A stretch of 64,000 bases of DNA, taken from the IMG/VR virus record IMGVR_UViG_3300045988_138358; one strand, written 5' to 3'. This stretch comes from a virus (lineage: Duplodnaviria; Heunggongvirae; Uroviricota; Caudoviricetes). This document shows positions 35,979-52,022 of the stretch, one piece after another (within the stretch, counting starts at the first letter, position 1; each line of letters begins with the position of its first letter). Below the pieces are notes generated by a model that was given only the letters and a program-made list of their open reading frames with translations, had not been told where the DNA came from and searched no databases. A program made the translations under genes and the position numbers.

Positions 35979-35989
35979 TGTTAGAAAAC
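35979..35989. promoter_or_regulatory. operator-like half-site TGTTAGAAAAC overlapping the ref stop codon
   Basis: Recurrent motif. Confidence 0.35.
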
Positions 35990-36567
35990 TAATTTATCAA
36001 TTCAATCGCCATCTGATACAACGTCATTTCATCGGCATTGTGCCGCATGAAATCTGCTTTTCCGCCTATTTTTCCATCAGCATGAACAGGGACCAGCCAG
36101 GGATATTGTTCTCGGACCTCGGCTGGCGCTGCGTACTGGTGGTGCCATTTACACAAAGGGAGGACATATTTATGCGCGTTCTCTGCCGTTCTCCCGAAGA
36201 TATGGTGCAGGGATACCACTGGGCTATGTTGCCCGTGAATATGGCAGGCAATGCAGGGGAGAGTACCGATAGCGGTCTGTATCCGGCGTTCATCGGCTGT
36301 GAGTGATCTGCCCTTCAGGCCGCGTGACGTGCGTGTTTTTTTGGGCGGAGCGGATACCGCTTTATCTTTTCTCCGCTGTTCATATTGCTTTGCTTTTTCA
36401 ATTTTCTTTTGCCGATATTCAGGCGATGCGGCTTTTTCTCTCGCTCGCTGCTGCTGGCGTTGAGCTTGTTGAAGGCGCTTTGCCCTTTGTTCCTCTCGCC
36501 AGGCTGGGTCAGCCAATTTTTGCATGGCTTTTTGTCTCTGTTTCTCCCAATAACTCTGTTTCTGCAT
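35989..36567 (-). CDS. ref: Ref-like HNH endonuclease (P1 recombination enhancement function family, tentative)
   Basis: ORF track 192 aa; Lys/Arg/Gln-rich N-terminus plus C-terminal Cys/His nuclease-like core. Confidence 0.5.
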   Translation of the reverse strand: MQKQSYWEKQRQKAMQKLADPAWREEQRAKRLQQAQRQQQRAREKAASPEYRQKKIEKAKQYEQRRKDKAVSAPPKKTRTSRGLKGRSLTADERRIQTAIGTLPCIACHIHGQHSPVVSLHHIFGRTAENAHKYVLPLCKWHHQYAAPAEVREQYPWLVPVHADGKIGGKADFMRHNADEMTLYQMAIELIN

Positions 36568-46464: not shown

Positions 46465-46716
46465 ATGAGCGACTGGAATATTGCAGCTAAAAGTCAGGAA
46501 GAACGGGATAAGGTTAACGTTGATCTGGCTGCCAGCGGTGTGGCGTACAAAGAGCGATTGAACATACCTGTCATAGCTGAACAGGTAGCCCGCGAGCAAC
46601 CAGAGAATCTGCGCACCTATTTCATGGAACGGCTACGGCACTACCGGCAGTTAAGCCTCCAGTTGCCAAAAGGGAGCGATCCGGTGTATCAGAACGAGGA
46701 TGCACCAAAAAAATAG
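46465..46716 (+). CDS. hypothetical protein
   Basis: ORF track 83 aa. Confidence 0.3.
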
Positions 46717-46801
46717 CGGCAAGATGGGGGAGAAATGTGATTAGCCCCCAGCGTGGCGCGCCTACAAACCCAGCTTTCACAAACTATGCCTTTTCAATGT
46801 A

Positions 46802-46821
46802 TACTGTATGAATAAACAGTA
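46802..46821 (+). promoter_or_regulatory. LexA box (TACTGTATGAATAAACAGTA)
   Basis: CTGT-N8-ACAG palindrome ending 19 nt upstream of the humD ATG. Confidence 0.75.
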
Positions 46822-46839
46822 TCATTAAGGTAAAACGCT

Positions 46840-47229
46840 ATGGGCTTCCCTTCTCCTGCGGCGGATTATGCAGAGAGCCGCATTTCTCTTGATCAGCAAC
46901 TAATCAGACATCCTTCCGCGACCTACTTCATGCGGGCGGCAGACAGCCATCACCGTGAGGGAATATTGCAAGGTGCTTTGCTGGTGGTTGATTCCTCACT
47001 TACTCCGGTTGATGGTTCACTGCTTATATGCGCTATGGAGGGTGAATATCGCATAAAGAGATACAGGAAGTATCCGCGCCAGCACCTGGAGGATTTAAGC
47101 ACCGGGAAGAAAGAGGCGTTACCAGTAGATGACGATGGATACACGGGCAGTAATGCTGTTTTTGGTGTGATCACTCATGTCATCAATGATGCCCGAAGTG
47201 GGGAGTTTGATTATAGACCTGTGATTTAA
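46840..47229 (+). CDS. humD: HumD-like, pre-truncated UmuD' homolog
   Basis: ORF track 129 aa; begins MGFPSPAADY, i.e. at the position of the UmuD self-cleavage site as I recall it. Confidence 0.65.
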   Translation: MGFPSPAADYAESRISLDQQLIRHPSATYFMRAADSHHREGILQGALLVVDSSLTPVDGSLLICAMEGEYRIKRYRKYPRQHLEDLSTGKKEALPVDDDGYTGSNAVFGVITHVINDARSGEFDYRPVI

Positions 47230-47239
47230 GGCGCATAAA

Positions 47240-47270
47240 GAAGCCCGCCAGACCAGGCGGGCTTTTTGTT
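47240..47270. terminator. intrinsic terminator between humD and the convergent minus operon
   Basis: Hairpin AGCCCGCC-loop-GGCGGGCT followed by TTTTGTT. Confidence 0.65.
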
Positions 47271-47274
47271 GATA

Positions 47275-48369
47275 TCATTCAATGATTTTTTCGGCTGTCA
47301 GCCAGCTAATTTCGTGCCTGTCTTTCGGCGGTTTTAGCATGTGAGCATATTCAGCGACATGCTCCCACGGAATTGTTTTTGCCCACTCAACGATAGCATT
47401 GTGATCTGCAGTGAAGAGTGGAATAGTGTGCGATTTCAACCATTCTAATGTCGTGACGCCATGTTTTTTGGCGTGGTGCTGCGCATGATGCCGGGCTATC
47501 ACTCGTAATGGCATTGTCCATTCACTACCATCAGGCATCGAAAAGCGCATTGTCTTCGGCATATCTGATTCAAGAACAGCCTCCCTAATACCAGGGAACT
47601 CACCAAGAATCATACGACGATAGTCATCACTATTTCGCCCGCCATACCTTTCGGCAAAATGATCAAGATATTCTTGGGTAATAAATGGTGAATCCTCCGC
47701 ACTCAGCTTAATGGCTTTATATACACCACTCGGATTATCTTCAGCTAAAGCACGTCCATGATGTGAATCATAAAAAAAGCCTATTTCCTCTGGTGACGGA
47801 ATTGAAGTGAGCAATATGCGTGAATCACCACTAGTCATGCTTGCCCACACAATGCTGTATGCCCGATCGCTGATATGTGCGGAATCCACAATAATGAATA
47901 AAAGATGGTCGGCGTAGTGACCTGCAATGCTATCTTCATAGTTAAGGCGGTAGTTACAAAAGCACATTCCCCAAAATTCATTGAACATCAGACCGCTATC
48001 ACCGACCTTAAAATACTCAATGATAAAAGGTTGTTTTTTCAGCAATGCCTCCCAACATTGCCACACATATGCAACAATTCCTCTTTTGCAAACATTTGAT
48101 TTTGGATAAACAATTACTGTCCGGGAATCAGGATACATAATCGTATAAAGGGTACTAATAACAGCAAGCACTTGCGGTCGTCCGATCCCATACGGAGTGG
48201 TGACAGTAGCTTTTGCATTATTGGGCTGTATAGCTTCAACAATTTGTTGTTGCTGGTGGCTTAAATCAATATCAAACAATTCTTTTGCTGCCAGTACCCA
48301 ATTGTCTTTATATTTCTCCACCAGCGACAGCCAGCGCGGATCTTTATAAATATTGCTCTTAGTCGCCAT
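47275..48369 (-). CDS. terminase large-subunit ATPase-domain paralog with degenerate Walker A and B, no nuclease domain
   Basis: ORF track 47275-48660; likelier start ATG 48369. Aligns by eye with the PacB-like protein at 53517-55025, but GHGTGKS is PYGIGRP and LDEAS is VDSAH. Confidence 0.6.
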   Translation of the reverse strand: MATKSNIYKDPRWLSLVEKYKDNWVLAAKELFDIDLSHQQQQIVEAIQPNNAKATVTTPYGIGRPQVLAVISTLYTIMYPDSRTVIVYPKSNVCKRGIVAYVWQCWEALLKKQPFIIEYFKVGDSGLMFNEFWGMCFCNYRLNYEDSIAGHYADHLLFIIVDSAHISDRAYSIVWASMTSGDSRILLTSIPSPEEIGFFYDSHHGRALAEDNPSGVYKAIKLSAEDSPFITQEYLDHFAERYGGRNSDDYRRMILGEFPGIREAVLESDMPKTMRFSMPDGSEWTMPLRVIARHHAQHHAKKHGVTTLEWLKSHTIPLFTADHNAIVEWAKTIPWEHVAEYAHMLKPPKDRHEISWLTAEKIIE

Positions 48370-49126
48370 CTGCCACTTCCTTAACTTCTTCTTTGGCCTG
48401 TTCTGCAATCGCCGCACGGCATTTCGCCCTGGCCGTAGCGATTGCTTCAGCACGCACATCATCAGGAATCGTTGACGTGATATACATATCCAGTTCTTCG
48501 GCGCGGAACACTGTTTGGTCCAGATATTCGCGTAGCATCCAGGTAAATTCGAAATCACACGCGATAATCTCTGCGCTACCTTCTGCACCATTTGGGAAAT
48601 GAATAAAAGCCTGTTTAGCCAAACCGATAACACGACATGCGGTTGCCAAAACAGCGGCAACCAGGTTTACATTTTCACACGCTACGGGCTGATTAACGCC
48701 GGAGATTACTCCATTTAACTGTCGGTTATATGGAAGGTAGTTTGAGATGCGTTCTACGCGCCATGTGCCAGTCAGGCTGCCATTCTTAAAGATAATTGGT
48801 GTAACGGATAGCCCAAGCTCGCGTATAAGTCGTTGCGCTATAGCAGGATCATTAAACATGTCTAATGCTACACATTCGAAAGACTGTGCAAGGGTAAACA
48901 GTTCTTCCAGAGAGTAGTCTTTGCCCCTGGCGGTGATGTAACGATGAACGCCGCTTTCTGCATCACTCCATATAGCTACGCCATGCTCTTCATTCAGCTC
49001 TTCATTAAAGCCGAGATACGTCATGATAGTACGTTCAATCGTGTCAAACGGCAGTGACATGTCGGCGTTAACAGCCACCAGCAGGCCATTACGCAAGCGG
49101 TATTGAATTGCTTTAGTATTTTCCAC
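48359..49126 (-). CDS. hypothetical protein
   Basis: ORF track 255 aa; overlaps the downstream gene start. Confidence 0.35.
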   Translation of the reverse strand: MENTKAIQYRLRNGLLVAVNADMSLPFDTIERTIMTYLGFNEELNEEHGVAIWSDAESGVHRYITARGKDYSLEELFTLAQSFECVALDMFNDPAIAQRLIRELGLSVTPIIFKNGSLTGTWRVERISNYLPYNRQLNGVISGVNQPVACENVNLVAAVLATACRVIGLAKQAFIHFPNGAEGSAEIIACDFEFTWMLREYLDQTVFRAEELDMYITSTIPDDVRAEAIATARAKCRAAIAEQAKEEVKEVADGD

Positions 49127-49132
49127 GTTAAA

Positions 49133-49597
49133 TCACTCCACTACAAACCAGTCACATGCCAGTAAGTCGCCTACAGAAGGCGCCCACGGAACAACTACAC
49201 CTTGTGCATTTTTTAAGGCGAAATAAGCACCATACGGAACGAGATCGCCGGGGAAATATCCCTTAATGGCTTCCATTCGTGCCGGGTACTGTCCTTCAGG
49301 AACCAGCCAGCAGAATTGGTTTTCGCCGTTCCACCCGCGCCGGGCAACTTTCTTGCCATCCTTCAGCCACATCAGCGCGTCAGAAAAGTCGGCTGCTTCA
49401 AGGTCGATTTCTTCTTGCTGGGTGGTGATGCCACCAGCAGAAATAGTTACGCTCCCGGTAAGATTAATCATCACGCCGTTGTCATCCGTAATGATGACCG
49501 TGGTTCCATTTTTGGAGGCGTCGTTAACCAGGCCATAGCGTTCCTCAGATGATTTGGGAAGGAACTTAAAAAGCTCTTTCGTTGCCATGTTATTCAT
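49133..49597 (-). CDS. fusion protein with C-terminal DUF2829-like (Tad2-like) domain
   Basis: ORF track 154 aa; C-terminal ~90 aa (ALMWLKDGKKVARRGWNG .. VVPWAPSVGDLLACDWFVVE) match the DUF2829 hallmark pattern as I recall it. Confidence 0.55.
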   Translation of the reverse strand: MNNMATKELFKFLPKSSEERYGLVNDASKNGTTVIITDDNGVMINLTGSVTISAGGITTQQEEIDLEAADFSDALMWLKDGKKVARRGWNGENQFCWLVPEGQYPARMEAIKGYFPGDLVPYGAYFALKNAQGVVVPWAPSVGDLLACDWFVVE

Positions 49598-49611: not shown

Positions 49612-50106
49612 TTATAACTTTTCGTACTGAAGCGGTGAACGCTTAATTTCAAAGTGGCCTTCCGATGTGCTACCAAAGCCACCAGCGCCTCGCTCTGTTT
49701 CATCGAGTTCATCAACTTCTACCAGCGATACCGGTTCAACACGCTCAAAAATGCCTTGCATGACCGCCATTCCTGGCTTGAGGCAAACGCCTTCACCACC
49801 GGGATCTGTAATCAGTTTTGCCATGATTTCACCGCGATAATCGGAGTCGATAATTCCTACGCAGTTAGCCAGGCGAGTATGTTTTTTGCAGCCCAATCCG
49901 GAACGCGGATAGAGTTTCAGACACCAGCCGGGCGGGATCTCCATAGCCAGTCCGGTGTACACCCACCAGCTTGAGGAAATTGCACCATTGCTATCGACAC
50001 ATGGTTTTATTTCAACAGCCTCAAAATCCATCGCCGCCGATCCGGAGGTGGCATAAGCTGGAAGTTTTGCTGCCGGATGTAGGCGTTTCACTTTTACGTA
50101 AATCAT
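49612..50106 (-). CDS. dut: dUTPase (trimeric dUTP pyrophosphatase family)
   Basis: ORF track 164 aa; motifs SAAMDF, GIIDSDYRGE and RGAGGFGSTS. Confidence 0.8.
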   Translation of the reverse strand: MIYVKVKRLHPAAKLPAYATSGSAAMDFEAVEIKPCVDSNGAISSSWWVYTGLAMEIPPGWCLKLYPRSGLGCKKHTRLANCVGIIDSDYRGEIMAKLITDPGGEGVCLKPGMAVMQGIFERVEPVSLVEVDELDETERGAGGFGSTSEGHFEIKRSPLQYEKL

Positions 50107-50993: not shown

Positions 50994-52022
50994 TTACGAA
51001 TCCATCAGGCGGCTATTAGCCCCCACAGACACGCCGCCACGGCGAAGATACCGCATAAGTGTTTCCGGTTTCTTCCAGGTTCCTTCCTGCATGATCTCCA
51101 CCATAGACACCTGCTTTTCAGCCATATCAATAGCGGCCCCGACGCGTGCACTATGCCCGGTCCACGTCCGGTATCTTCCTTTGTTTGGCGTAGCATCTCT
51201 TTTATTCAGCAACACCCAGGCGTCGCTGAATATTTTCTCCATTGCAGGTGCAGTAAGGGGCGTTGTCGTGATCCTGGCCTTATTGCTACGGTGTATCGGC
51301 GGGAACAGCACTGCGTCAGGATGTTCGCGAAGCCCGGAAACATCCAGCCAGTCATTCAGCACAGCGGTAGTGCGACGGGAAAGCACCTTATCAAGCCCGG
51401 CGGCGGTCGTTATTGTCTTCGTGTGTGAAATATGTAGCGTGACAGTGTCACCTGTTTGGTCCAGATCTCCTACACGAATACGCGAGATTTCCGACATACG
51501 CATCAGCGTATTGTATGCAACAAAGAGAAAAGCCCGGTTGCGCAGGTCCACCAGCCGTTCTGACCTGGACAACAGGACGTCGAGCAGTTTCAGATCGTCC
51601 CACCGCAGCGGTATAGCCTGGCCTGTTCGTTCGCCTTTTTCAGTTGCCGCTTCGCGCCGGATGCGCCGCATAGCCAGAGAAACACTTTTATCATCCGAAA
51701 GTGGCGGAAGGCCACAATGCGAAAGCAGCATGTTCAGCATGGCGTAGTGCTTATCAATGGTGGTCGAAGCCAGATCGGCATCATGCAGCTGAAGAAAATA
51801 CTCGCGGGCCATTTCTGGTGAGATCGGAAACCAGGCAAGCTGGCGAGCGTGACACCAGCGCGCCCAGGAATGAAACACCAAACGGAGGTCGCGCAGAGTA
51901 TTCGGCGCATAAGCTCCCTGGTCATTCATGAACCGCATAAAGTTTTCTGCGGCTTCCTGGTACTCTTTGCCAATGTTGCGCAGAAAACCACCGGAACTGC
52001 CAGAGATAATTAATTCACTCAT
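50994..52022 (-). CDS. cre: Cre-like tyrosine site-specific recombinase
   Basis: ORF track 342 aa; C-terminus WTGHSARVGAAIDMA..EIMQEGTW..MRYL matches P1 Cre (WSGHSARVGAARDMA..EIMQAGGW..MNYI) as I recall it, catalytic His/Arg/Trp/Tyr in place. Confidence 0.85.
   Translation of the reverse strand: MSELIISGSSGGFLRNIGKEYQEAAENFMRFMNDQGAYAPNTLRDLRLVFHSWARWCHARQLAWFPISPEMAREYFLQLHDADLASTTIDKHYAMLNMLLSHCGLPPLSDDKSVSLAMRRIRREAATEKGERTGQAIPLRWDDLKLLDVLLSRSERLVDLRNRAFLFVAYNTLMRMSEISRIRVGDLDQTGDTVTLHISHTKTITTAAGLDKVLSRRTTAVLNDWLDVSGLREHPDAVLFPPIHRSNKARITTTPLTAPAMEKIFSDAWVLLNKRDATPNKGRYRTWTGHSARVGAAIDMAEKQVSMVEIMQEGTWKKPETLMRYLRRGGVSVGANSRLMDS

Follow-up and report, generated by a model that had tools for sequence, protein, structure and literature searches.

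A small gene in the 64,000-nucleotide stretch of DNA analysed here (the window, in what follows) appears to connect a plasmid prophage to the SOS response of its host. The interval 46802-47229, which had been singled out by an original prediction made from the sequence, proved to be exact, running from the first base of an SOS box to the stop codon of humD. The encoded protein is predicted to begin at the residue at which UmuD cleaves itself, the SOS box is a predicted LexA operator overlapping the humD promoter, and a probable terminator follows the gene. Together, these results make it very probable that humD of this D6-like plasmid prophage is a self-contained single-gene SOS module that feeds the host pol V pathway.

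Identity of the gene and its start site

Profile and alignment matches identify the window gene as the counterpart, by orthology, of humD in phage P1. Its predicted protein is 96% identical to P1 HumD, 95% identical to the D6 protein and 96% identical to that of 813R1. It also matches the NCBIfam equivalog NF051876, 'HumD family translesion DNA polymerase', with 210.3 bits against a cutoff of 120, and the match runs from end to end (residues 1-129 on profile positions 1-129 of 129). A UmuD-like protein family was matched in PHROGs as well (phrog_811, E=1e-54). At the DNA level, megablast aligned 46700-47300 with 813R1, RCS47, D6, SJ46, P7 and P1 at 92-95% identity, and the features under these matches are annotated humD, HumD or UmuD-like, and in P1 and P7 also 'LexA'. 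The P1 RefSeq record describes humD as 'DNA repair; functionally complements E. coli UmuD'' and labels the homologous 20-mer 'LexA binding site in the regulatory region of lxr and humD'.

According to published work, P1 HumD can take the place of UmuD' both in mutagenesis and in survival of UV (McLenigan et al. 1999, J Bacteriol 181:7005). Given the 96% identity, we infer that the window allele would do the same, acting in mutagenesis and binding UmuC and RecA filaments. The P1 study reportedly also covers dimerisation, as well as binding to UmuC and to RecA filaments. P1 HumD was reportedly poorly expressed, with good complementation only from a high-copy plasmid, and for this reason the physiological contribution of HumD in a lysogen is uncertain.

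The gene and the signals around its start are listed here.

46840-47229, plus strand: humD coding sequence, ATG start, 129 amino acids plus stop; the sole substantial open reading frame in 46802-47229
46831-46833, plus strand: in-frame TAA, two codons 5' of the humD ATG, read from the sequence
46828-46832, plus strand: Shine-Dalgarno-like AAGGT, 7 nt 5' of the humD ATG, read from the sequence (GAGGT in P1, D6 and 813R1)

That the protein starts at the UmuD self-cleavage residue had been proposed before, and the alignments bear this out. A phmmer search against PDB sequences aligned humD residues 2-118 with UmuD' residues 1-114 (1umu_A, E=6e-23); against full-length UmuD (8gmt_B), residue 2 fell on residue 25. 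In a MAFFT alignment, Met1 falls on Cys24 and Gly2 on Gly25 of E. coli UmuD, and residues 2-10 (GFPSPAADY) are identical to E. coli UmuD 25-33. According to both alignments, the humD start is exactly the UmuD self-cleavage site, Cys24-Gly25. Because of the TAA two codons upstream, a longer or UmuD-like N-terminal arm cannot be encoded. Met-Gly is a substrate of methionine aminopeptidase, and therefore the mature N-terminus of HumD should, upon the presumed removal of Met, match that of UmuD' exactly.

A Peptidase_S24 domain was detected in the humD product (Pfam, E=1e-8). It is the only domain there; the DNA-binding domain found in S24 repressors of the LexA and phage CI type is absent. The product scored 25.7 bits against the lexA model TIGR00498, far under its cutoff of 110.95, and was also under the cutoff of the UmuD-subfamily model PRK10276 in NCBIfam (86.9 versus 110 bits).

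Genomic context and possible partners

The alignments mark the window as a D6-like plasmid prophage related to P1. Of the 64 kb, 60.6 kb could be aligned with pTB423, an E. coli plasmid of 91.8 kb, with 99% identity around humD, and the 5 kb surrounding the gene has matches in 705 plasmid records. Just past the humD stop codon, homology with P1, D6 and 813R1 ends. In those three elements humD is followed by the phd-doc addiction operon, whereas unrelated minus-strand genes take that place here. Upstream, P1 carries a divergent, LexA-regulated lxr gene between hot and humD that shares the operator, whereas lxr is absent here, as it is in D6, RCS47 and 813R1. The neighbouring features and other genes of interest in the window are the following.

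46465-46716, plus strand: hot, Pol III theta homolog (Pfam DNA_pol3_theta, E=5e-34), directly 5' of humD
47275-48372, minus strand: 365-aa open reading frame, phrog_5902 (unknown function), with weak terminase large subunit likeness (phrog_2, E=9e-9)
48359-49126, minus strand: isaA-like 255-aa open reading frame, matching phrog_2326 (a family of unknown function)
49133-49597, minus strand: DUF2829 protein, mapped from pTB423/D6 annotations
49612-50106, minus strand: dUTPase, mapped from pTB423/D6 annotations
50994-52022, minus strand: Cre-like tyrosine recombinase (D6 dre), mapped from pTB423/D6 annotations
35989-36567, minus strand: Ref-family RecA-dependent nuclease homolog, mapped from pTB423/D6 annotations

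The 365-aa and 255-aa minus-strand frames downstream of humD had no match in Pfam or NCBIfam.

A tblastn search with two phage UmuC proteins did not find umuC in the 64-kb window (best E=0.098). The complete sequence of pTB423, the closest relative, gave none either (tblastn, best E=0.65) and has no Y-family polymerase annotated, and Pfam detected no Y-family polymerase domain in nine large open reading frames of the window. Since neither the window nor pTB423 has umuC, HumD would have to act with host UmuC, which is what has been reported for the P1 protein.

The same neighbourhood can be read differently, with modulation of the host replisome or of the SOS checkpoint, and not mutagenesis, as the main role of HumD. 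HumD could displace uncleaved UmuD from UmuC and so cancel the UmuD2C checkpoint, or HumD and Hot could contact Pol III subunits, allowing phage or plasmid replication to continue under damage. UmuD and UmuD' both bind the alpha, beta and epsilon subunits of Pol III, humD lies directly after the gene for a Pol III theta homolog and is paired elsewhere with dinI, another RecA modulator, and the highly conserved C-terminal tail, missing from UmuD', suggests an extra partner. We nevertheless consider this reading rather unlikely, since nothing in the present data indicates a function of another kind and the 96%-identical P1 protein, according to published work, replaces UmuD' in mutagenesis and UV survival. 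Supply of a UmuD'-like subunit to host pol V is therefore retained as the preferred function of HumD.

The C-terminal tail

47185-47226, plus strand: family-specific C-terminal tail (residues 116-129), from the family alignment

HumD-family proteins carry a near-invariant tail, INDARxGEFDDCPV[MI], which UmuD and UmuD' are without. Among 127 family members, E122 is kept in 123, F123 in 120, D124 in 121, D125 in 116, C126 in 104 and P127 in 121, so that the tail exceeds the catalytic Ser and most of the HumD protein in conservation. The window allele reads GEFDYRPVI where P1 has GEFDDCPVI, with D125Y and C126R at two near-invariant positions; this variant is also present in pTB423 and in database proteins P0001, P0002, P0015 and P0050. 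An AlphaFold2 model from a 24-sequence family alignment was poor (mean pLDDT 50.7) and was not used to judge the order of the tail.

To our knowledge, no function of the HumD tail has been published. With its acidic character and hydrophobic last residue, it superficially resembles the C-terminal tip of SSB, DFDDDIPF. The tail could serve as a docking peptide, either recruiting a partner from host replication or repair or competing for one, and so give HumD a role beyond replacement of UmuD', an idea that we regard as decidedly unlikely. If it were true, the D125Y/C126R change of the D6-like lineage would be a natural specificity or loss-of-function variant.

Catalytic residues

Ser36 (46945-46947) and Lys73 (47056-47058) align with UmuD Ser60 and Lys97 in both phmmer and MAFFT, the position of the Lys being marked by the K97A chain of 8gmt. 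Across the HumD family (n=127), the nucleophile position is occupied by Ser in 86 proteins, by Thr in 37 and by Gln, Tyr or Ala in 4, among them the proteins of the Hafnia and Aeromonas phages. At position 73, 120 of the 127 retain Lys; HK639 has Met there, and the same Hafnia and Aeromonas proteins have Arg. The dyad thus appears to be relaxed across the family, which is consistent with self-cleavage being no longer needed.

These counts also bear on the suggestion that HumD keeps S24 protease activity and uses it in trans to cleave host UmuD or a LexA-like substrate. Intermolecular cleavage by UmuD-like proteins is known, and the window protein has both residues of the dyad, the Lys being widely kept. 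However, with Thr at the nucleophile position in 37 of 127 members and other replacements at both positions, the dyad looks only partly constrained, which would be expected if catalysis were dispensable; we find a protease function in trans very improbable.

Predicted LexA operator, promoter and terminator

The reading of humD as a single-gene SOS module draws on the signals predicted upstream of the gene.

46802-46821, no strand assigned: predicted LexA operator (SOS box), TACTGTATGAATAAACAGTA, from PWM, extended pattern and annotated P1 homologue
46776-46781, plus strand: predicted -35 hexamer TTCACA of the humD promoter, from a sigma-70 consensus scan, conserved in D6 and 813R1
46800-46805, plus strand: predicted -10 hexamer TATACT of the humD promoter, from the sigma-70 consensus scan

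The motif CTGT-N8-ACAG occurs once in the 64-kb window (CTGTATGAATAAACAG at 46804-46819). Since 0.65 occurrences are expected per window and 49 of 100 shuffles contain the motif at least once, it is not significant alone and was dropped as evidence; an extended pattern and a position weight matrix (PWM) were used instead. The extended pattern, TACTGTAT-N6-ACAGTA, has a single occurrence in the window, and none of 100 shuffles contained it. The PWM was symmetrised and built from 18 E. coli boxes (PMC3009722 Table 4), and it gave the window box a score of 25.8 bits, while the best score per shuffled window had a mean of 12.7 and a maximum of 20.4 (n=200). Leave-one-out scores of the E. coli boxes were 26.6-26.9 for umuD, sbmC and istR2, 20.1 for recA and 18.8 for lexA, and the window box is one base off the E. 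coli istR2 box. The PWM scan revealed no further LexA boxes in the 64-kb window, the runner-up scoring 10.7 bits, less than the mean best score of the shuffles. By these scores, 46802-46821 is a top-tier predicted LexA operator, as strong as the umuDC operator, and the sole one in the window.

The predicted humD promoter, TTCACA-18 nt-TATACT (46776-46805, plus strand), has 10/12 consensus matches and was the only one found upstream on the plus strand by the sigma-70 scan. The SOS box overlaps its -10 hexamer and the transcription start expected near 46812 and lies 38 nt 5' of the humD ATG. In P1, the box lies 39 nt from the ATG and differs from the window operator at 2 spacer positions. The -10 position there reads TGTACT as opposed to TATACT here, and the sigma-70 scan yields no promoter for P1, so that the humD promoter of the window is closer to consensus. 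Taking this arrangement together with the P1 annotation, we infer that LexA would repress the humD promoter. The expectation that a consensus LexA box would be found in the promoter region is thus upheld by the 25.8-bit site over the -10, and not by CTGT-N8-ACAG as such. The proposal that a mutagenesis accessory factor is wired into the host SOS response likewise agrees with the 96% identity to P1 HumD, the NF051876 equivalog and the annotated P1 LexA site.

Another LexA site has been described in P1, where it overlaps the promoter of coi (PMC4713147). No equivalent of that site was seen in the 64-kb window by the PWM scan.

Transcription of humD probably ends close to the gene.

47238-47270, no strand assigned: intrinsic terminator hairpin (probable), GC core GCCCGCC/GGCGGGC, from RNA folding

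The hairpin begins 8 bases past the humD stop, is preceded by an A-tract and followed by TTTTTGTT, and folds with -23.8 kcal/mol (z=-4.6), a value equalled by 0 of 200 shuffles. Its minus-strand version was picked up by the terminator scan, and the hairpin is probably a bidirectional intrinsic terminator. The scan detected no terminator between hot and humD, and LexA-independent read-through into humD is therefore possible.

The P1 arrangement raises the question of whether the LexA box might be a relic serving some other gene and play no part in the control of humD, since in P1 it is shared by lxr and humD, with the predicted PhumD placed about 460 bp upstream in the record, and lxr is missing from the window. 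We consider this highly improbable. The distance from box to ATG is held at 34-39 nt in D6, 813R1, N15, HK639, Hafnia yong1 and BTP1, all of which are without lxr; moreover, the box overlaps a 10/12 sigma-70 promoter reading into humD, and its score equals those of the strongest E. coli operators. Control of humD by LexA thus remains our preferred interpretation.

Conservation across phages

By tblastn, 91 of 50,697 phage records were found to carry a humD homolog. Ten diverged phage examples were fetched from these matches and compared by script; the diverged homologs have protein identities of 43-67%, and their surrounding DNA is unrelated. A Met codon stands directly before the Gly25-equivalent in N15 (gp26), HK639, HK140, Hafnia yong1 and Huey. 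In phiKO2, gp23 starts with GTG on the Gly25-equivalent codon itself, Aeromonas pAEv1818 begins MGMPKF, and the BTP1 copy has Met-Glu at its start, with the Met at the equivalent position. In a family set of 126 proteins, comprising 120 listed database homologs and six phage proteins, exactly one residue precedes the Gly in 115; the longer database gene calls end in M before this G and look over-extended.

The operator is found again in the diverged phages. A TACTG...CAGT box lies 34-64 nt 5' of the ATG in N15, phiKO2, HK639, Hafnia yong1, Aeromonas pAEv1818, BTP1 and Huey, and a LexA site is annotated in the phiKO2 record. In HK140 and the Citrobacter prophages the box is located further upstream, before an 80-aa open reading frame, and is divergent from a dinI homolog. 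When humD was compared with its counterparts in P1, D6 and 813R1, dN/dS was 0.06-0.11, indicating strong purifying selection. Because start and operator are co-conserved across phages with unrelated flanks, and because of this dN/dS, the comparisons indicate that the pre-truncated start and the SOS operator are selected, co-inherited features and not a deletion accident.

The notion that humD is a decaying 5'-truncated umuDC remnant whose pre-activation is accidental merits almost no credence and is effectively refuted by the conservation data: the full-length umuD-umuC pairs of the temperate phages Oslo and ENT39118 make a deletion origin historically plausible, and the BTP1 copy is disrupted after 47 open codons, but the low dN/dS, the Met-Gly start in 115 of 126 homologs down to 43% identity, the gene's own Shine-Dalgarno, promoter, operator and terminator, and the curated equivalog family all stand against it.

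Two further observations were made on these loci. A divergent dinI-humD pair around one SOS box was seen in phiKO2 (L005, 1181-1884), HK140 (L007, 910-1890) and the Citrobacter prophages (L015-L018, 3439-4390). DinI is an inhibitor of the RecA co-protease, and in some dinI-humD loci the 80-aa frame sits just 5' of humD. If a phage supplied DinI together with an already cleaved form of UmuD', activation of pol V would be uncoupled from the cleavage that RecA mediates. In BTP1 (L010, 1501-1800), the SOS box TACTGTATTAATATACAGTA is intact and the start reads M-E-F-P, with the frame open for 47 codons only; the record annotates a minus-strand hypothetical protein over this copy, which is probably a pseudogene.

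Proposed mechanism and significance

As a single-gene SOS module, humD could work in the following way. In an undamaged lysogen, host LexA bound to 46802-46821 would cover the -10 and the start region and keep humD off. DNA damage would activate RecA and lead to self-cleavage of LexA, allowing synthesis of a short monocistronic humD mRNA that ends at 47238-47270. Translation would yield the 129-aa protein, and removal of Met1 would leave the N-terminus GFPSPAADY, as in UmuD'. HumD would in this way skip the slow RecA-dependent cleavage of UmuD to UmuD'. A HumD dimer with host UmuC and RecA would then form a pol V-like translesion polymerase, resulting in lesion bypass and mutagenesis of damaged DNA, and the post-translational delay on error-prone synthesis would be shortened or bypassed. 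Points that weigh against this scheme are the D125Y and C126R changes in the tail of the window allele, the possible read-through from hot and the reportedly poor expression of P1 HumD.

In such a scheme, a temperate phage-plasmid would tap the host SOS regulon via a single small gene, and its pre-activated pol V accessory subunit would remove the RecA-cleavage delay that restrains error-prone synthesis. Such an effect matters for mutagenesis, and for how antibiotic resistance evolves, in the numerous strains of E. coli and Salmonella with P1- or D6-like plasmids.

The arrangement of gene and operator is already known. P1 HumD was described experimentally in 1999, complementation of UmuD' being foremost among the experiments done (McLenigan et al. 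1999, J Bacteriol 181:7005), and annotation pipelines name the gene routinely. The present analysis contributes a confirmation, together with a comparative demonstration that start site and operator are co-conserved across distant phages. The absence of lxr, the difference at the -10 and the downstream replacement relative to P1 do not alter the identification of the gene as humD.

Comparison with known systems

The closest of the known systems compared here is P1 HumD (humD, P1_gp103), with which the window protein shares its length of 129 aa, the Met-Gly start at the UmuD cleavage site and the lack of a cognate umuC; in both cases, humD follows hot in a P1-type plasmid prophage.

Compared with E. 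coli UmuD/UmuD' (PDB 1UMU, 1I4V, 1AY9, 8GMT), the window HumD has the same S24 fold at 45% identity. A Ser/Lys dyad and a very strong upstream LexA operator are shared with UmuD, and the first nine mature residues, GFPSPAADY, with UmuD'. Unlike UmuD, the window HumD has neither the 24-residue N-terminal arm nor the cleavage site, and therefore would need no RecA-dependent activation step. Its sequence also runs on for about 10 residues past the point where UmuD ends and has roughly 4 extra residues ahead of the last strand, and its gene is not in an operon with umuC.

Salmonella phage Oslo and Cronobacter phage ENT39118 resemble the window element in being temperate phages with an S24 accessory protein under control of a LexA box. 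However, they encode a full-length umuD, with the arm and a C-G or A-G site, and a cognate umuC, neither of which is encoded by the window element.

Orphan genes of the same type are found in N15 (gp26), phiKO2 (gp23), HK639 and HK140, whose proteins are 62-67% identical to the window HumD. They have in common with it the SOS box, the Met-Gly-Phe-Pro start, a length of 125-129 aa, the conserved tail, an own terminator and the absence of umuC. In these phages the gene looks like 'moron'-type cargo beside tail-fibre, integrase or partition genes. In phiKO2, HK140 and the Citrobacter prophages, humD is divergent from dinI and shares the operator with it, whereas in the window its neighbour is hot.
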